DNA from: a virus
Virus record (IMG/VR): IMGVR_UViG_3300032092_000011
Coordinates: 45,842-109,841 of that record
DNA length: 64,000 nt
Direction: 5' to 3' (one strand)
Below the pieces are notes generated by a model. It did not search any database and was not told where the DNA came from. It worked only from the letters and a program-made list of their open reading frames with translations. Numbering within the stretch: the first letter of the stretch is position 1; each line of letters starts with the position of its first letter. The translations under genes were made by a program, and so were the position numbers. Below, one piece after another: positions 36,030-43,863 of this stretch.

Positions 36030-36045
36030 ATAACATGTTATTGAA

Positions 36046-39000
36046 TTATCCGCAATAAAGATAACCGTAGATTCCAGTTGCCTTACCTTCACTATCAAAA
36101 GTACAATCTTCCATACATTTACCCAATGTAAATGAATTTATAGTTTGTCTTTCCTCGTATTGAGGTGTTCCATTGTCAAATCCAATAATGACATATTCAA
36201 CTGGTTGTTTCATTGCGTATCCTGGTACGTCAGAAGAACATAGTAAATCTCCTTTTAGAACTGGACCATTTTGGTTACATACTTTTATACCTTGTAATCC
36301 TGTTTTAGCATCGAATGAATCTCCTAATGAAGCAACTCTCCATATACTTTTTTGATTTCTGTCCGCCAATGGTATTTTATTTCCAAATGAATCTCTATAT
36401 TGATAATCTTTTTCTGAAGTATCTTTTCCATTTATTAAGAATCTATCTAATGGACTTTCCTGTATAGAAAAATCAACTTCTTGCCATAAAATACCAACAA
36501 TTGCCGGGTCTTTTGCAGAAGATGCTTTAACTAATTCATTGTTTCCATCTAATTTAACAAGATCTCCAACTTCTAATATAACATCATTTCTTTTAGTATA
36601 TTGGTGAGACAATGTTGTTGCTATTGCTTCTCCATATGGTTGCTCACGAGGATCTGTACCTCCTCTGTAATTTACATAGTCATCTGCGAGTAATTCAAAA
36701 TCTTGTTGATATTGAATAAAATTAGTTTTCGTTGATTCAAAATCAGTTTTAAAAGCACCAAATCTTGTAGTTCCAATGTACGCATCATTTCTCATTTTAA
36801 GCATTTGACGTGCACCTAATTCCGGATCTTCAACGATGTCAACTTCAAAGAAATCATTCATTGGACTTCCGCCTACCGTAGCACCTGAAGTAATATCAAT
36901 ATCTCCTTTAAATGCTGCGGTACCGTCTGGTGCAATATAGAAGTTTTTAGCATTGATTGCACCTAGATCTAAGTTAATACCCATACCAGCCGTAGAATAA
37001 GTATTCCATGCTGATGTGTGATTTGCTGGGAAGTTACCATTCTTAATTATACCAGTAGTTATCTTTCCACCATCAATAGTAGTGGATGTTGTTAAAAACT
37101 GAGAAGTATCTGGAGCTGGACCTTGTGGACCTGTGGCTCCCTGAATAGATTTTGCAAAACTTTGAGTTTTAGTAAAGCTAAAACTTGCACCATTTGCTCT
37201 TTTTCCAGAAATCGTGTATGTTATCGATGCTGTATTAGCTGTCATATTATTATGATCGCCAATCGTTGCATAATTACCGCTATCAGTAATACTTCCCGGA
37301 GTAATTGAACTACCTGTTCTTGTTAAAGTCCATCTACTAGCAGAGGTTCCTGATCCATCATAAATTAATTCAGTAGCTCCTTCATATAATCTTATGGTAG
37401 TTCCTGAACCAGTATAAGTAACAACACCAGCACTAGTTGTAGGTAAAGTATGCGCTTCATTACTAAGAATTACTGTCATACCATCAGTACCAGGTGCTCC
37501 ATCGATACCATTAACGCCATCAACTCCGTCTCTACCATTAACGCCATCAACTCCGTCTCTACCATTAGTACCATTAGTACCATTAGCACCATTAGTACCA
37601 TTAGTTCCTGGTTTAATTCCAGACATTGTGATTTGGTCACGTGCTAAAACTGTACCTGTTGTACCGCCTTCTCTAATCTGTACTTCTATTTTGTCAGGCA
37701 TACTGTCAAAACTAGATTGTGGAGTATATGTGTATGTTGTAGAAGTACCATTTTGAACAGATACATCATTTTTAAAGAATTGATAATATACAGTTCCGCT
37801 TGTATTTAAAGCAGCTGCAGTAATTGTAGTGCTTGTAGGAGATGGAGTTGTTCCAGAAGTATTATATACAAATACCTGATCTACACAAGTTAGGTTTACA
37901 GCTCTTGCATTTGCTCCAGCTGCACCGTCTGCTCCGTCTGCACCGTCAACACCATTAGCACCTTGAATAGATTTTGCAAAACTTTGAGTTTTAGTAAAGC
38001 TAAAGCTTGTACCATTTGCTCTTTTTCCAGTAATAGCATACACTATAGAAGCTACGTTAGCAGTCATGTTGCTGTGATCGCCAATCGTTGCATAATTACC
38101 GCTATCAGTAATACTTCCCGGAGTAATTGAACTCCCTGTTCTTGTTAAAGTCCATTTACCAGCGGTAGAACCAGATCCATCATAGACTAATTCAGTAGCG
38201 CCTTCATATAATCTTATAGTAGTTCCTGAACCAGCATATGTAACTGTTCCTGTGTTTGTTGTTGGCAGAGTATGTGCTTCATTACTAAGAATTACTGTCA
38301 TACCATCAGTACCAGGTGCTCCATCGATACCATTAACGCCATCAACTCCGTCTCTACCATCAGTACCATCAGTACCATTAGTTCCTGGTTTAATTCCAGA
38401 CATTGTGATTTGGTCACGTGCTAAAACTGTGCCTGTTGTACCGCCTTCTCTAATCTGTACTTCTATCTTGTCAGGCATGCTAGCAAAACTAGATTGTGGA
38501 GTATATGTGTATGTTGATGCTGTCCCATTTTGAACAGATACATCATTTTTAAAGAATTGATAATATACAGTTCCGCTTGTATTTAAAGCAGCGGCTGTTA
38601 TTACTGAACTAACTGGTGAAGGATTTGTTCCGGACGCATCATATACAAATACCTGATCTACGCAAGTTAGGTTTACGGCTCTTGCATTTGCTCCAGCTGA
38701 ACCGTCTGCTCCGTCTGCTCCGTCAACACCGTCAGCTCCTTTGACTAAAACCCAATTATAAAGTGATGAATCTGTTGAATCAGCTTCGGTAAAATCAGTA
38801 TAAGTTCCCATATACTCTCTACCAGTCGGATCGCTTACGCTAAAATCAATAATTTGATTGCTGCCATTTTTATTTGCATATGCAATATGTAAATATGAAG
38901 TTTGTCCATCAACACCATTAACACCAGGAAGACCATTCTCACCATTAGCTCCATCAGCACCTTTAACTAATTGCCATTTCCATAAAGTACTTCCAGATGG

Positions 39001-41013
39001 TGCATCAGCAGCGGTTGTATCAACATAAGTACCTATGTATAATTTTCCGGCTGCGTTTTGACTAAAGCCTCCTCCAGAAGCATTGTCAGCATATGCAATG
39101 TGAAAATACGTTGAAACACCATCAGCGCCAGGAGCACCAGGAAGACCATCTGCACCGTCTAAACCATTAGTACCTGGGGCACCTTGTGGGCCAGGAGCTC
39201 CATCTACACCATTAGTACCAGCAGGACCTTGTGGACCGGCAGAAAAACTAACAGCTCCATTAAATGCAACTTGTCCATCGATAATAGAGAATGGAGTTAA
39301 TAATTGTCCATTTGGACCTCCAGTAGATACTTTAAAAGAATCTGCTGTAAATGAAATTGAACTACCTGTTTCATCAGCTCCTAATCTCATTCCAGCAACA
39401 TTACCATCAGCATTTACTTCTAGAGTATATTGTGCATTTACTTTATTAGTAAGAGCATTAATATCAGCACTCATTGATTGAGTTACTCCAGCAGTTTGTT
39501 CTTCTAATTCTGCTATTAAATTAGTTGTTGAAGTTACAGTTGCTTGATTAGCAGTTGCAATTGCTGAATCAATAACTGTTTTAAGAGCAGAAGACTGGCT
39601 AAAACCAGTTATTGATCCATTATCTATTGTATATTGTGCTTCTAGTGTATTTAATCTAGTTACAGTTGCTCCATCACCATTACTTAAAGAAGCAATCTCT
39701 TCACTAATATTTGTTAATGCCTCTGCTCTAATAGCAGCTTCTCCAGCAATTGCTTCAGCAATATCAACTTCGAATTGCGTACCTAAATTAGTAACTGAAA
39801 GAGCAACGGCTTCATTAGCAGTTGTTAATGCGGATATTGAACTTTCAACTCCTGCAATTGCCTGTGTTCTTAAAAGATTTTGATTATCTTCTAGGTCTGT
39901 TAAATCACTTGCAAATGAAGCACTTAAATTAGTTACTGCTTGTGCAGTTGCTGAATTAGCATCATTTAACGTAGTCAATGTTTGATTTATACTGGAAATT
40001 GCTGATGTTCTTGCTTGAGTTTCAATTCCTAAAAGTCGTGCTCTTTCAGCAGCTTCTTCAGCAATAGCACTAACTCTTTCAGCAGCTTCTGCTTCTAAAT
40101 CTTCAATTGTTGCTAATCCAGTTAAATCAGCACCTGGAATTGAACTTACAGCACTTTGAATTGCTGATGTTCTAGCCAATACTTCAGCTGCTAGAGCATT
40201 TTGTCTTGCTAATGCTTCAGTTGAAATTGCTCCAGTAATTTCACTAGTAAAAGATGTGCTTAAATCCGTAACTGATTGCGCAGTTGCTTCATTAGCATTA
40301 GATAGTGAAGTTAAAGTTTGATTAATATCTGAAATTGCAGATATTCTTAATGCTGCTTCAGAACTAACAGCAGCTTCAATTTCAGCTTCAAAAGAAGTAT
40401 TTATATTATTTACTGTTTCGGCAAGAGCTTCATTAGCATTAGATAATGAAGTTATAGTTTGATTTATATTTGAAATTGCAGCTGTTCTTGCTAATGTTTC
40501 AGCGCCAACTGCTGTTTCAATTTCAGCTTCAAAAGAAGTATTTATATTATTTACAGTTTGTGCGAGTGCTGAATTTGAATTAGCTAATGTTGTTAATTGA
40601 CTAGTTACGCTTGTTAATGCTTGTGTTCTAGCTGTTGTTTCTAAACCAATAACTCGGGCTCTTTCAGCTGCTTCTTCTAATAATCTACTATTAGTAACTA
40701 ATTCATTACCATTAACTTGCATATTACCATTAGCCATGCTAATTGAATTTGATCCAAGATAGATTGTGCTGTTACTTAAGTAAATATCTCTAAATCTTAG
40801 AGTTGGCGTACCTAAATCATGAATTTCATTTTGATCAGGTATAATACTAAATGCAACTTGTCCATTAAAAGACGAACCAGTCCCGCCTTCAAAACCATCA
40901 AGTAGTTCAGAAATTTCAGTAAGTTGCTGATTAATTGCAGCAAAATTATCGTTAAGCGTTTTACGCGAATCTTTTATACCATCGGTTCCTAGTAGTGGTG
41001 TTATTGAAGCCAT
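36046..41013 (-). CDS. tail fibre/host-specificity protein (coiled coil, gpJ/DUF1983-like segment, collagen repeats, duplicated domain, C-terminal chaperone-like domain)
   Basis: AQYTLEVNADGNVAGMRLG...FTADSFKV gpJ-like motif, YFHIAYAD repeats, G-X-Y runs, GDLLCSSDVPGYAMK C-terminus. Confidence 0.8.
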   Translation of the reverse strand: MASITPLLGTDGIKDSRKTLNDNFAAINQQLTEISELLDGFEGGTGSSFNGQVAFSIIPDQNEIHDLGTPTLRFRDIYLSNSTIYLGSNSISMANGNMQVNGNELVTNSRLLEEAAERARVIGLETTARTQALTSVTSQLTTLANSNSALAQTVNNINTSFEAEIETAVGAETLARTAAISNINQTITSLSNANEALAETVNNINTSFEAEIEAAVSSEAALRISAISDINQTLTSLSNANEATAQSVTDLSTSFTSEITGAISTEALARQNALAAEVLARTSAIQSAVSSIPGADLTGLATIEDLEAEAAERVSAIAEEAAERARLLGIETQARTSAISSINQTLTTLNDANSATAQAVTNLSASFASDLTDLEDNQNLLRTQAIAGVESSISALTTANEAVALSVTNLGTQFEVDIAEAIAGEAAIRAEALTNISEEIASLSNGDGATVTRLNTLEAQYTIDNGSITGFSQSSALKTVIDSAIATANQATVTSTTNLIAELEEQTAGVTQSMSADINALTNKVNAQYTLEVNADGNVAGMRLGADETGSSISFTADSFKVSTGGPNGQLLTPFSIIDGQVAFNGAVSFSAGPQGPAGTNGVDGAPGPQGAPGTNGLDGADGLPGAPGADGVSTYFHIAYADNASGGGFSQNAAGKLYIGTYVDTTAADAPSGSTLWKWQLVKGADGANGENGLPGVNGVDGQTSYLHIAYANKNGSNQIIDFSVSDPTGREYMGTYTDFTEADSTDSSLYNWVLVKGADGVDGADGADGSAGANARAVNLTCVDQVFVYDASGTNPSPVSSVITAAALNTSGTVYYQFFKNDVSVQNGTASTYTYTPQSSFASMPDKIEVQIREGGTTGTVLARDQITMSGIKPGTNGTDGTDGRDGVDGVNGIDGAPGTDGMTVILSNEAHTLPTTNTGTVTYAGSGTTIRLYEGATELVYDGSGSTAGKWTLTRTGSSITPGSITDSGNYATIGDHSNMTANVASIVYAITGKRANGTSFSFTKTQSFAKSIQGANGVDGADGADGAAGANARAVNLTCVDQVFVYNTSGTTPSPTSTTITAAALNTSGTVYYQFFKNDVSVQNGTSTTYTYTPQSSFDSMPDKIEVQIREGGTTGTVLARDQITMSGIKPGTNGTNGANGTNGTNGRDGVDGVNGRDGVDGVNGIDGAPGTDGMTVILSNEAHTLPTTSAGVVTYTGSGTTIRLYEGATELIYDGSGTSASRWTLTRTGSSITPGSITDSGNYATIGDHNNMTANTASITYTISGKRANGASFSFTKTQSFAKSIQGATGPQGPAPDTSQFLTTSTTIDGGKITTGIIKNGNFPANHTSAWNTYSTAGMGINLDLGAINAKNFYIAPDGTAAFKGDIDITSGATVGGSPMNDFFEVDIVEDPELGARQMLKMRNDAYIGTTRFGAFKTDFESTKTNFIQYQQDFELLADDYVNYRGGTDPREQPYGEAIATTLSHQYTKRNDVILEVGDLVKLDGNNELVKASSAKDPAIVGILWQEVDFSIQESPLDRFLINGKDTSEKDYQYRDSFGNKIPLADRNQKSIWRVASLGDSFDAKTGLQGIKVCNQNGPVLKGDLLCSSDVPGYAMKQPVEYVIIGFDNGTPQYEERQTINSFTLGKCMEDCTFDSEGKATGIYGYLYCG
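37142..38694. repeat. near-identical tandem duplication of about 750 bp inside the tail fibre gene
   Basis: Copies at about 37142-37917 and 37964-38694 encoding GANARAVNLTCVDQVF...TQSFAKSIQ. Confidence 0.85.
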
Positions 41014-41064
41014 TTCTTAGTTATTTTATATTTTAAATATCGTATTATATATTTAGTTTTTTTG

Positions 41065-41149
41065 CGGAAGCTACAGGATTCGAACCTGTGGGACCGTGAA
41101 GTCCGCCACTTTAGCAAAGTGGCACGATAGACCGCTCTGACAAACTTCC
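41065..41149 (-). tRNA. tRNA-Ser(GCT)
   Basis: CCACT-TTGCTAA-AGTGG, long variable arm. Confidence 0.9.
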
Positions 41150-41151
41150 AA

Positions 41152-41228
41152 TGGGGTGACCAGTGGGGATCGAACCCACGACAACTAGAACCACAATCTA
41201 GTGCTCTACCAACTGAGCTATGGCCACC
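41152..41228 (-). tRNA. tRNA-His(GTG)
   Basis: CTAGA-TTGTGGT-TCTAG, G-1:C73, encoded CCA. Confidence 0.92.
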
Positions 41229-41233
41229 ATGTG

Positions 41234-41308
41234 TTGCGAGACCGGGACTCGAACCCGGAACTTCGGCTTATGAGACCGACGAGATAACCATTTTCTACGC
41301 ATCTCGCA
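41234..41308 (-). tRNA. tRNA-Met(CAT), atypical D-arm
   Basis: TCGGT-CTCATAA-GCCGA; canonical T-arm. Confidence 0.75.
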
Positions 41309-41316
41309 ATATAATA

Positions 41317-41443
41317 AAAAGAGGTTTCGGGTCTTTCAGGGTTACTGATTATTAATGTTAAGGAGATGGGTGCACTGTCTACTCTAAACCCTTTTTCGAC
41401 CTTTTTCCATCTAATTAATAATTACAGCTTCACTACCTCTTTT
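41317..41443 (-). ncRNA. pseudoknotted ncRNA candidate
   Basis: AGAGGT/ACCTCT, ATTATTAAT/ATTAATAAT, AGATGG/CCATCT, crossing AGGGTT/AACCCT and GGTC/GACC. Confidence 0.55.
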
Positions 41444-41446
41444 TTG

Positions 41447-41518
41447 TAGTCAATAAAGGATTCGAACCCTTATCTCTTGATCCGTAGTCAAGTGTTCTAT
41501 CCGTTGAACTAATCGACT
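41447..41518 (-). tRNA. tRNA-Arg(ACG)
   Basis: CTTGA-CTACGGA-TCAAG. Confidence 0.88.
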
Positions 41519-41526
41519 AAATTATG

Positions 41527-41600
41527 TGGACCAGCCTGGGCTCGAACCAGGGACCTACGCATTATGAGTGCGGTGCTCTAACCAACTGAGCTACAAGTCC
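41527..41600 (-). tRNA. tRNA with CAT anticodon, probably Ile2 (lysidine), possibly elongator Met
   Basis: CGCA-CTCATAA-TGCG; body resembles bacterial Ile2. Confidence 0.8.
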
Positions 41601-41606
41601 ATTTTG

Positions 41607-41677
41607 CACGGGTGGAGAGATTCGAACTCCCATCGACGGTTTTGGAGACCGGAATGCTACCATTGCACCACACCCGT
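41607..41677 (-). tRNA. tRNA-Trp(CCA)
   Basis: CGGT-CTCCAAA-ACCG; G73. Confidence 0.9.
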
Positions 41678-41681
41678 AAAT

Positions 41682-41818
41682 TAAGGAAAAGAGAAGATGG
41701 TTCAGTGGACATCTCTTTTTACAATCGGCTTTACTTTGGTTTATACCTGCAAACTCCGATAATAACGATCAGTATAAACTCTTGAATCATAGTTATTATC
41801 ATTCCCCGATTAACCTTA
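41682..41818 (-). ncRNA. H-type pseudoknot ncRNA candidate
   Basis: AATCGG/CCGATT enclosing crossed GATAATAAC/GTTATTATC and GTTTATAC/GTATAAAC, then an AAAAGAGA/TCTCTTTT hairpin. Confidence 0.55.
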
Positions 41819-41819
41819 G

Positions 41820-41901
41820 TGCCTGCAGAAGGACTCGAACCTCCGAACCCGTAAGGGAGCTGATTTACAGTCAGCTGCAATTGCCGCTATGCGATACAGG
41901 C
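41820..41901 (-). tRNA. tRNA-Tyr(GTA)
   Basis: GCTGA-CTGTAAA-TCAGC, long variable arm. Confidence 0.92.
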
Positions 41902-41973
41902 AAATTCCAATTTTGATGGGCTCATCTGATAATATGTTTCAATTACCCAGCACTTGAGATTGGGAACTCCTAG

Positions 41974-42048
41974 TACATCTTGAAGGATTCGAACCTCCGA
42001 CCCTCTCGGTGTAAACGAGATGCTCTAAACCAACTGAGCTAAAGATGC
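41974..42048 (-). tRNA. tRNA-Val(TAC)
   Basis: TCTCG-TTTACAC-CGAGA. Confidence 0.9.
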
Positions 42049-42053
42049 ATGGC

Positions 42054-42147
42054 GCTTCATATTATTCACAATTGATAATCATATTGGATTATCCACTCAA
42101 ACTTACGACAGCTTTTAACTGAGAGATCGTAAGATTGTGTATGAAGC
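42054..42147 (-). ncRNA. three-way-junction ncRNA candidate
   Basis: GCTTCATA/TATGAAGC, CACAAT/ATTGTG, CTTACGA/TCGTAAG, GATAATC/GATTATC. Confidence 0.5.
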
Positions 42148-42152
42148 ATGTG

Positions 42153-42226
42153 TGACCCCGACAAGATTCGAACTTGTGACTCCCTCATTAAAAGTGAGGT
42201 GCTCTAGCCAACTGAGCTACGAGGTC
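42153..42226 (-). tRNA. tRNA-Lys(TTT)
   Basis: CCTCA-CTTTTAA-TGAGG. Confidence 0.92.
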
Positions 42227-42320
42227 AAATTTCGTCTTTTCCTTACCGCTTACTATTCACATTGCCAGTCCGAAGTTACTGTCGGATGCTTACTTCTTTC
42301 GAAGAGTCAATAGTACATTG

Positions 42321-42392
42321 AGCAGGTAGAGAGAATCGAACTCTCATCTCCAGATTGGAAGTCTGGAGTAATAGCCGTTATACGATACCTGC
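42321..42392 (-). tRNA. tRNA-Gly(TCC)
   Basis: CCAGA-CTTCCAA-TCTGG. Confidence 0.9.
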
Positions 42393-42398
42393 TTGTTG

Positions 42399-42474
42399 TC
42401 GGATAGGCAAGATTCGAACTTGCGTGCTCTGCATCCCAAATGCAGCGAGATAAACCTAACTCCTCTACTATCCG
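42399..42474 (-). tRNA. tRNA-Pro(TGG)
   Basis: CTGCA-TTTGGGA-TGCAG. Confidence 0.88.
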
Positions 42475-42483
42475 TTTATTTTG

Positions 42484-42556
42484 TGGTGCGGGGCAGGATC
42501 GAACTGCCGACACCAGGATTTTCAGTCCTGTGCTCTACCTACTGAGCTACCGCACC
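42484..42556 (-). tRNA. tRNA-Phe(GAA)
   Basis: CAGGA-CTGAAAA-TCCTG. Confidence 0.92.
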
Positions 42557-42562
42557 AAGTTG

Positions 42563-42632
42563 AGTACAAGGTTGGAATCGAACCAACTCCGCAGATTTTG
42601 CAGACCTGCTGGCCTCCAAGACCAACTCGTAC
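42563..42632 (-). tRNA. tRNA-Cys(GCA)
   Basis: CAGGT-CTGCAAA-ATCTG; U73; short D-arm. Confidence 0.8.
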
Positions 42633-42645
42633 TTTTTTTGCCAAT

Positions 42646-42657
42646 ATGTCAAAGAAC
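42646..42657 (-). promoter_or_regulatory. boxA-like antitermination site
   Basis: GTTCTTTGACAT just before the first tRNA; identical copy at 28829-28840. Confidence 0.5.
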
Positions 42658-42673
42658 TCTTGTTCCTAAAACT

Positions 42674-42726
42674 TTATGCTAATATAAACAAAAAGTTTCA
42701 AATAAAAAAATATTTCAAAAACTTTT
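42674..42726 (-). promoter_or_regulatory. class A promoter variant upstream of the tRNA array
   Basis: TTGTTTATATTAGCATA. Confidence 0.5.
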
Positions 42727-42742
42727 TCACTTTCACCTAAAT

Positions 42743-42774
42743 AAAAAAAGCTCGACTTTTAACGGTCGAGCTTT
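42743..42774 (-). terminator. intrinsic terminator (putative attenuator)
   Basis: AAAGCTCGAC-CGTTAAAA-GTCGAGCTTTTTTT. Confidence 0.85.
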
Positions 42775-42803
42775 CTTGTTAGGATATATGAATATTCAAA
42801 CTG

Positions 42804-42896
42804 TTACAAGAGAGCCCGCCCACGATCACATGCGCCATACGGTTTAACGCTAAACCATAAATTCATGTTTTCGATATGTTGCCCTATTCGTTGCAT
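42804..42896 (-). CDS. putative attenuator leader peptide MQRIGQHIENMNLWFSVKPYGACDRGRALL
   Basis: 30 codons, 19 of 20 amino acids; its 3' end is complementary to the 5' arm of the downstream terminator. Confidence 0.7.
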   Translation of the reverse strand: MQRIGQHIENMNLWFSVKPYGACDRGRALL

Positions 42897-42916
42897 TAGT
42901 TTGTTATTTTTGTAGT

Positions 42917-42944
42917 ATTATAATCTATATATCGGTATTGTTTC
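42917..42944 (-). promoter_or_regulatory. class B promoter GAAACAA-N15-TATAAT driving the leader peptide
   Basis: Exact motif, with GATATATAG inside the spacer. Confidence 0.65.
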
Positions 42945-42949
42945 AAAAA

Positions 42950-43168
42950 TTATTGATTTTTATCAAATTTTTTACAATCAATTTTTCCTACTTCCTGATA
43001 AGCTTGAAATAAGAGTGTTAAAGCTTCATCGACTTTGGTCGAAACTTCTTTCTCTAGCTTACATACTGGATGCTGTAATATATGGTCATCTATTGTACTC
43101 ATAATTACATGAAGTCGATCCAGCATTTCATGATAATGAAATTTATCTAATTTATCTTTTACACTCAT
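42950..43168 (-). CDS. hypothetical protein
   Basis: 72-aa ORF. Confidence 0.55.
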   Translation of the reverse strand: MSVKDKLDKFHYHEMLDRLHVIMSTIDDHILQHPVCKLEKEVSTKVDEALTLLFQAYQEVGKIDCKKFDKNQ

Positions 43169-43863
43169 ATAAATGAATCTAGTGTTACTATTTTAAGACC
43201 GCATAATTTATCGCAAATTTCTCTAGAAAAATCTTGATCTGATTGATAGTGAATTCCGCCTTGTACTCTAGTGTGTGCAACTTTATCACAAAACTCTGCA
43301 ATTTTTTCTGCATGTTCTGGATATTTTTGACCAAGAATAGAAGCAATCATATATGAATCAAGAGCATGTCCACTTGGGTACGATGCAGTTGCAGCATTAG
43401 TCGGGCAAACTTGAAACATTCCAATTCCTAAAGGTCTTGCTAATTGCCATGGTCTTGCTCTATTATAATAATTCTTTAATTTATAAAGAAGAGGATCTGT
43501 AAAATCTGCGATTTTCTTTATTAAATCTTCATTGTCATCTAAACCTAACTCTTCTAGAAATTCGCCAATCACTTCATTAATATCTTTTTCAACATCTTCA
43601 ATTAACTCAATATCTTTATCAGTTAAATTATTTTGTTGTTTTAAAATGCTTTGTAATTCTTCAGCAGCTTCTGGACTTGAATTCTTTGGAAAAGGCTTGT
43701 TAAAGAATTCTTCTAAGATTCCTTTTTCACGACACATCTTCATAACAAGAGGTTCTTCTTCAACCATATATGTTTTACGATGTTTTAATGCTTCATTACC
43801 ATAACCAAGCATATCAATTTGGTTAAAGTCAGCAAACTCATTATATGATTTAATTTTTGCCAT
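43165..43863 (-). CDS. PAP2-family acid phosphatase with CTS-like start
   Basis: KNYYNRARP, SYPSGH, RVQGGIHYQSD; starts MAKIKSYNEF. Confidence 0.85.
   Translation of the reverse strand: MAKIKSYNEFADFNQIDMLGYGNEALKHRKTYMVEEEPLVMKMCREKGILEEFFNKPFPKNSSPEAAEELQSILKQQNNLTDKDIELIEDVEKDINEVIGEFLEELGLDDNEDLIKKIADFTDPLLYKLKNYYNRARPWQLARPLGIGMFQVCPTNAATASYPSGHALDSYMIASILGQKYPEHAEKIAEFCDKVAHTRVQGGIHYQSDQDFSREICDKLCGLKIVTLDSFI

Follow-up and report, generated by a model that had tools for sequence, protein, structure and literature searches.

A candidate leader-peptide attenuator in front of tRNA gene arrays in an uncultured phage and its relatives

We judge it reasonably likely that a short leader in front of the tRNA genes of an uncultured giant phage is a ribosome-mediated attenuator of the trp type, which would gate transcription from the leader's own promoter into the tRNA array. 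The window, meaning the whole 64-kb stretch of DNA that was analysed, is the final part of a 109.8-kb IMG/VR record with an estimated completeness of 42%. Its minus strand carries all of its long ORFs, and its 25 tRNA genes together serve all 20 amino acids. The reason why phages carry tRNAs is debated, with codon usage, the loss of host tRNAs and the evasion of anticodon nucleases under discussion, and to our knowledge the regulation of phage tRNA genes is largely unknown. The elements of the leader (Table 1), their conservation, their alternative pairings and the statistics on its composition were obtained by computation.

Table 1. Coordinates of the leader elements and of the neighbouring features in the 64-kb window
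Feature	Position	Strand	Remarks
Leader promoter, -35 box TTGAAA	42941..42946	-	Sigma-70-like; together with the -10 box 11/12 matches at 18-nt spacing
Leader promoter, -10 box TATAAT	42917..42922	-	From the sigma-70-like scan
Leader ORF	42804..42896	-	30 codons plus TAA; 19 different amino acids
Region 1 (codons 2-5)	42881..42891	-	Candidate anti-antiterminator strand, pairing with region 2 in MFE folds
Inner hairpin within the ORF	42838..42859	-	Trp-Phe-Ser-Val-Lys-Pro-Tyr codons; from folds and the RNAalifold consensus
Region 2, antiterminator 5' strand	42806..42818	-	Last codons and first base of the stop codon
Region 3, pairing with region 2	42767..42779	-	Overlaps the 5' arm of the terminator
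Intrinsic terminator, regions 3:4	42743..42774	-	Hairpin of about -15 kcal/mol and a seven-T run
Extra spacer, window phage only	42660..42742	-	Degenerate duplicate of the pre-tRNA element and weak second TTGAAAC-type promoter near 42700; from alignments
Conserved 17-nt element	42641..42657	-	Immediately 5' of tRNA-Cys; invariant in lineages A-C
First tRNA block	41064..42632	-	13 tRNAs, Cys to Ser; presumed regulated genes

The leader ORF begins 20 nt past the -10 box. It has the content that a sequence-only reading of this DNA had ascribed to it, namely 27 distinct codons (ATG, CAA and GGG each occur twice) and, at residues 6-25, 19 different amino acids, with Asn present twice and Thr absent. 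The same reading had remarked on GC-rich codons that are unusual for this genome, and several leader codons are indeed rare among the phage's own genes (CGG 1%, GGG 2%, CTC 3%, CCG 7%, AGC 9% and GGC 10%). Under the amino-acid composition of the phage, the chance of at least 19 distinct residues in a 20-residue window is 2e-7, and the leader holds the sole 19/20 window among the 44,021 stop-free six-frame windows of the 64 kb, in which real proteins reach at most 17. When the nucleotides of the leader ORF are shuffled, a 19/20 window arises at about 5e-5 per ORF. The ORF lacks a Shine-Dalgarno sequence and its start region is A-rich, which is normal for this phage because only 5 of the 62 genes in the window have a Shine-Dalgarno-like motif.

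The RNA elements downstream were likewise found where the sequence-only reading had placed them. The terminator has a GC-rich 10-bp stem (42774-42765 with 42756-42747) closed by an 8-nt loop; the seven T that follow end at 42743, 110 nt before tRNA-Cys starts at 42632. Its absence from the output of the consensus scan is due only to stem extension, which consumed the T run. In a consensus fold of the alignment, the stem shows compensatory changes at two positions among relatives. The pairing of the last codons with the 5' arm of the terminator also proved to be as described, covering 12 of 13 positions (42818-42806 with 42779-42767) by 11 Watson-Crick pairs and one G-U, with one C.A mismatch. 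This duplex between regions 2 and 3 (2:3) reaches -17.0 kcal/mol in the window (p=0.0025 against shuffles). The stop codon overlaps the end of region 2, and an AT-rich spacer of 24 nt lies between the stop and region 3. Among the 10 gene-strand terminator-like hairpins of the window, only that of the leader beats all shuffles for upstream complementarity (0/400), and the other nine have no such complementarity (p >= 0.085).

Folding of the alternative structures, proposed earlier as a check, gave the same three states in five lineages. The minimum free energy (MFE) folds of transcripts cut at the stop codon have region 1 paired with region 2 (1:2) around the inner hairpin in five of five lineages, those cut after region 3 adopt the 2:3 antiterminator, and full-length transcripts combine 1:2 with the terminator. 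Codons 2-5 and the last codons could possibly form an anti-antiterminator in this way, an element absent from the earlier reading. The 1:2 duplex has shuffle p values from 0.0095 to 0.64 and is weak in two of the five lineages, and only 3 of its pairs are common to the consensus fold. The positions of the inner hairpin are paired in 6-7 of 7 sequences in the RNAalifold consensus, and this hairpin is possibly a pause or coupling element.

Relatives were sought via the upstream 232-aa and 72-aa proteins, degenerate DNA patterns of the leader and the tRNA-Cys sequence. The closer ones fall into lineage A (window, L004, L058), lineage B (L006-L009, L061, L065) and lineage C (L067-L073, among them one contig of 256 kb). 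In every relative of these lineages, the promoter, ORF and terminator adjoin a tRNA array. The leader is tied to the tRNA array and not to the upstream gene, because the array is still present in lineage C where the upstream gene is different, 43 loci with the 72-aa gene but no nearby array have no leader, and a leader profile run against 89 loci matches only array-adjacent sites. Searches of the GenBank phage collection with the leader region, its peptide and the 72-aa protein encoded upstream returned no match in DNA or protein, and the leader pattern gave 15 chance matches in cellular genomes, none of them with the downstream features.

Among the closer leaders, 2:3 complementarity was compared with 2000 shuffles (p = 0.0025, 0, 0, 0.016, 0.015 and 0.003; -12 to -19 kcal/mol). 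The shared 2:3 core is paired in 80.6% of alignment cells, compared with 14-39% when the partner strand is slid. Formal covariation is thin in this homologous set, where the core never varies and a single pair has a double change; the covariation count is weak, since extensions specific to a lineage are aligned in separate columns and the core itself does not change. Moreover, the GGGCTC core of region 2 is read in one frame in lineages A and B and in another in lineage C, which indicates that region 2 is conserved as RNA and not as peptide.

The covariation that is thin among close relatives is supplied by distant ones. The records G002, G003, G005 and G006, the last a complete genome of 364 kb, were reached via homologues of the 72-aa protein (46-63% identity over the best aligned segment), and their arrays are located elsewhere in the genome. 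Five arrays in these records have the same upstream arrangement with unrelated terminator sequences, and in each of the five leaders a segment close to the 3' end of the ORF is complementary to the leader's own terminator arm (p = 0.005, 0.0003, 0.006, 0.002 and 0.003). In these leaders region 2 ends -1 to 20 nt before the stop, and 22-29 nt separate the stop from the terminator arm. Overall, all ten leaders, which carry six different terminator arms, exceed shuffles in 2:3 complementarity. The two signs that had been proposed for relatives, an ORF-terminator arrangement upstream of their arrays and covarying antiterminator/terminator pairs, were therefore both seen: the arrangement is kept, always directly before the array, in every relative reached, and each of the six arms has its match close to the 3' end of its own leader ORF.

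All ten leaders have an open reading frame. Between lineages, the spacing of the ATG and the Cys-Asp codons differs by -3, 0 or +6 nt, so that the indels are in frame, and third codon positions account for 9 of 13 substitutions within lineages (P=0.009). The window and L004 agree in all of the first 25 residues despite three synonymous changes, and L058 differs from the window in one of them (Ile-to-Thr, codon 8). Several conserved residues of the leader coincide with the conserved inner RNA hairpin. Taken together, the sequence comparisons provide moderate evidence, short of proof, that the leader ORF is translated.

This evidence bears on the reading of the leader as a non-coding element with an incidental frame, that is, a structured small RNA or an attenuator set by a protein, tRNA or ligand in the manner of a riboswitch or T-box. 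The 173-nt transcript does fold far better than shuffles (z = -4.1) and its block-wise conservation coincides with helices. However, such an element would not account for the open frames, the in-frame indels and the third-position substitutions, nor for a stop codon whose position with respect to regions 2 and 3 is constant. No Rfam model scores close to threshold either; among the leader families (Trp_leader, His_leader, Leu_leader, Thr_leader and Phe_leader) the best is Thr_leader with 17.8 bits against a gathering threshold of 55 (E=3.8), and the T-box model has no match in 40900-43300 at E <= 10. We regard a non-coding element as very improbable.

The same conserved peptide sequence and synonymous changes could instead mark an independent small gene, a self-contained unit encoding a functional peptide of 30-37 residues, whose terminator insulates an array with a promoter of its own. 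The strength of the terminator and the possible downstream promoters in the window and L004 would fit such a unit. Left unexplained by it are the six terminator arms each complementary to their own ORF, the occurrence of the unit only in front of tRNA arrays, the conservation of region 2 as RNA in another frame in lineage C, and a leader composition that follows the array in G006. The leader peptides moreover match no Pfam or PHROG family, and an independent small gene seems distinctly improbable. Among the readings set aside are a T-box or riboswitch, a stand-alone small RNA and a stand-alone small protein gene.

The residue diversity of the leader is shared by its relatives only in part. Lineage A leaders have 19-20 residue types, and that of L058 holds all 20 amino acids within 22 residues. 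The leader of G005 (L091:789-926) likewise holds all 20 within 24 residues, in a different order from the window leader, with which it has only the N-terminus in common. The probabilities of such all-20 stretches in L058 and L091 are about 1e-6 and 1e-5 under the proteome composition, and 2e-5 and 2.5e-4 under a uniform composition. Leaders of lineages B and C are less extreme, at 15-17 different residues in 20 (p from 0.22 to 0.0035). Diversity was reduced in lineage B by derived changes of Lys to Asn and Arg to Leu, and the sub-lineage with these two losses has an array truncated to 12 tRNAs. G001 has a truncated 12-tRNA set and a leader that still has 17 residue types, and near-complete arrays stand behind low-diversity leaders in G002 (14 residue types) and G003 (10). 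The leaders of G003 and G006b are significantly less diverse than shuffles. The earlier expectation that relatives would conserve diversity with a variable order therefore held for L058 and L091, but not for lineages B and C, G002 and G003.

This uneven pattern is where a different kind of attenuator has to be weighed, one that senses general ribosome availability or translation initiation, a sequence-specific nascent-peptide arrest or a few rare codons (GGG, ATA, CGA, CCG), with diversity as a partial by-product of GC-rich stems in an AT-rich ORF. The decay of diversity in lineage B and the leaders of G002 and G003 that are not diverse would agree with it, as would the rare codons at stem positions and a residue core (Phe-Ser-x-Lys/Asn-Pro ... 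Cys-Asp) kept in lineages A-C. In addition, the stall-sensing bmrB (PMC4191407) and whiB7 uORF (PMC10274678) leaders are reported to respond to general translation stress. Such a sensor is nevertheless unlikely, although it deserves some weight: composition-preserving shuffles of the ORF reach 19/20 only at the low rate given above, two lineages hold all 20 residues in different orders, and the leaders of G006 follow the content of their own arrays. The conserved residues, for their part, overlap the conserved RNA hairpin and need not mean a function of the peptide.

The relation between leader codons and array content could be most usefully read from G006. The window leader contains no run of one codon and fits the phage tRNA set only as closely as background, with 24 of 29 codons readable compared with 0.74-0.80. 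A special match of this leader to its 22 proximal tRNAs was considered and rejected, as the match, although real, does not exceed that expected from background codon usage. The test of leader-array matching has no power where arrays are near complete (window, G002, G003, G005). The G006b array, by comparison, has 20 tRNAs for only eight amino acids, and 32-35 of the 40 codons of its leader are readable by the tRNAs of that array, against a background of 0.43-0.47 (P 1e-6 to 1e-7). In G006a, where the array consists of Tyr and Lys tRNAs only, Tyr and Lys codons are clustered in the leader (P=0.036). As such, G006 is the informative case, showing classical regulatory-codon enrichment applied to tRNA genes. 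The stronger idea that leader content always tracks the array was discarded, as it fails for G001, G002 and G003.

A broader interpretation, plausible though held only tentatively, is that the arrays of giant phages of this group are governed by a family of programmable leader-peptide attenuators whose codon content would evolve to mirror the tRNAs behind them, with pan-amino-acid leaders before full sets and restricted leaders before partial sets, so that the phage would read decoding capacity and autoregulate its tRNA supply. If this were true, decoding capacity would be read directly, for example after the cleavage of host tRNAs, tRNA degradation or starvation. The narrower reading of the leader as a trp-type attenuator is supported, at the level of sequence, by the conserved arrangement, the matched arms, the all-20 leaders of changed order and the mirroring of the array in G006b.

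In the proposed mechanism, in which ORF translation, the direction of switching and the cause of ribosome stalling are all inferred, RNA polymerase would start about 14 nt before the ATG and a ribosome would translate the 30-codon leader. A fast ribosome arriving at the stop would sit on or just past region 2 and leave the terminator arm, at least 24 nt downstream, free to form, and transcription would end. A ribosome delayed in roughly the first 20 codons would leave region 2 free, and 2:3 would then form in place of the terminator and allow read-through into the tRNAs. Without any ribosome, region 1 may pair with region 2, which would again allow termination. The sensing stretch, with about one codon each for some 16 amino acids, would report overall decoding capacity and not one amino acid, and the outcome would be phage feedback on its own tRNA supply.

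The argument that the switch reads the supply of many charged tRNAs follows from the presence of about one codon per amino acid and the lack of a run of any single kind. The earlier claim that loss of almost any tRNA would be sensed would hold for about 16 amino acids. It does not extend to the Ala, Cys and Asp codons (22-24), where a stalled ribosome would cover the nearby region 2, and the usable sensing set is reduced accordingly. Single codons are a poor sensor of mild starvation (PMC1183508), but would respond well if one tRNA were lost almost completely or if ribosomes slowed in general. That anticodon nucleases act as the trigger is speculation.

The leader promoter, TTGAAA-N18-TATAAT on the minus strand (42946..42917; 11/12), is the same site as the GAAACAA-N15-TATAAT motif reported earlier. 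In the alignment, its -10 region hardly varies within lineages A and B; L006 has a single C-for-T change in the -10 box. It belongs to a promoter class, TGAAAC-N17-TATAAT, that recurs on the minus strand of the window at 42945, 36030 and 29848 and also occurs ahead of leaders in relatives. Two caveats that had been raised about promoters are justified, since a weak second TTGAAAC-type promoter is present near 42700, downstream of the terminator, and the copy at 36030 precedes the second tRNA block, where there is no leader ORF or terminator. The site near 42700 was not flagged by the sigma-70 scan. L004 has a promoter-like site (10/12) downstream of its terminator, and no promoter-like site was found between the terminator and the first tRNA in L006 and L067. 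Because such sites follow the terminator in the window and L004, the leader switch is suggested to modulate tRNA expression rather than to act as an on/off gate.

Attenuators of amino-acid operons (trpL, hisL, leuL and pheL, and the multivalent thrL and ilvL) have in common with the phage leader a promoter, a short leader, mutually exclusive 2:3 and 3:4 hairpins with an intrinsic terminator, and a possible 1:2 pairing. An early ribosome stall favours read-through in those operons and a ribosome that has reached the ORF's end favours termination, and the same is predicted for the phage. The leaders of trp and his operons are enriched in one or a few amino acids, whereas in the phage leader 19 amino acids have about one codon each. 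The phage leader further differs in controlling tRNA genes instead of biosynthetic enzymes, in an ORF that runs through region 2 instead of ending before it, and in having no sequence or Rfam match to the amino-acid operon leaders. T-box riboswitches are also transcription attenuators tied to tRNA charging, as the phage leader would be. They differ from it in binding uncharged tRNA directly, with no need for translation, and in having synthetase and amino-acid genes as targets; their Stem I and T-box sequence are conserved.

Other parallels come from cellular systems that respond to impaired translation. Mycobacterial whiB7 is reported to be activated by the loss of many amino acids, tRNAs or synthetases, with the coding sequence of its uORF setting what is sensed (PMC10274678), and a report on Bacillus subtilis bmrB-bmrCD has a section heading on an effect of rare codons on the attenuation decision (PMC4191407). 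In these accounts, a stall in a short upstream ORF relieves a terminator in the whiB7 uORF and bmrB, as would be the case in the phage leader; the outputs are a transcription factor (whiB7), a drug pump (bmrB-bmrCD) and tRNA genes (phage), and the whiB7 uORF is enriched in alanine while the phage leader is spread evenly across residues. Both whiB7 and bmrB are cellular, the phage leader is viral, and there is no homology. The trn operon of Anabaena sp. PCC 7120 (PMC8421152) follows the same biological logic, as it is a long accessory tRNA array induced when translation is impaired. Unlike the phage leader attenuator, it is controlled by a repressor at the promoter, through promoter direct repeats and the ribbon-helix-helix protein TrcR (PMC10272220), and the words attenuator, leader and terminator are absent from the 2021 Anabaena paper (PMC8421152). 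Full-text searches of the published literature returned no account of a leader-peptide attenuator acting on tRNA genes or on phage tRNA arrays.

The leader switch probably lets the phage transcribe more tRNA when ribosomes decode slowly. If so, the phage would measure decoding capacity and supply tRNA on demand, and a translated test gene that gates the array would make the debate on the purpose of phage tRNAs directly testable. Attenuation would also come to cover the translation apparatus as well as amino-acid metabolism, with nearly all amino acids sensed in place of one. With a compact length of about 170 nt, the leaders could be used as natural reporter sensors of tRNA or amino-acid limitation.

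Several observations concern the arrays and their surroundings. The 17-nt element ahead of tRNA-Cys contains TTGACA, is invariant in L004, L006, L058, L067 and the window, and is too near the tRNA for a standard promoter. A degenerate copy lies near 42700-42716 in the window, and variants (L089, L093) are found ahead of the first tRNA in G002 and G006. In G002 (L089:795-810), a -10-like box ends only 3-4 nt before a double ATG, and translation of this leader may start on an mRNA that is leaderless or nearly so. The leader of L069 (G001) differs by only 1-2 nt from those of L061 and L065, and the arrays behind them are very different (12 tRNAs in L069; arrays starting Cys-Phe-Pro-Gly in L061 and L065), which implies that tRNA genes turn over much faster than the leader. 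In the window, tRNA blocks 1 and 2 are separated by an ORF of 1655 aa (36046-41013) with collagen-like Gly-X-Y runs and two long internal repeats; the blocks are contiguous in the relative L066, so the 1655-aa gene looks like an insertion into the array. The eight-amino-acid array of 20 tRNAs at L098 (G006:C1:137300-144600) includes four Arg, three Ser and three Gly tRNAs and has the unusual anticodons Ile-TAT, Gly-ACC, Arg-CCT and Arg-TCG. ARAGORN called no tmRNA-like gene in the window, and found one in L066 (1969-2256) and L069 (6427-6712), with a tag ending in Ala-Leu-Ala-Ala, overlapping tRNA-Ile in the distal block. Finally, the 72-aa gene of the relative L005 is followed directly by a tRNA with a CTA anticodon (2748-2820), of amber-suppressor type and given the label Pyl by ARAGORN, which could hint at stop-codon reassignment or suppression in that phage.
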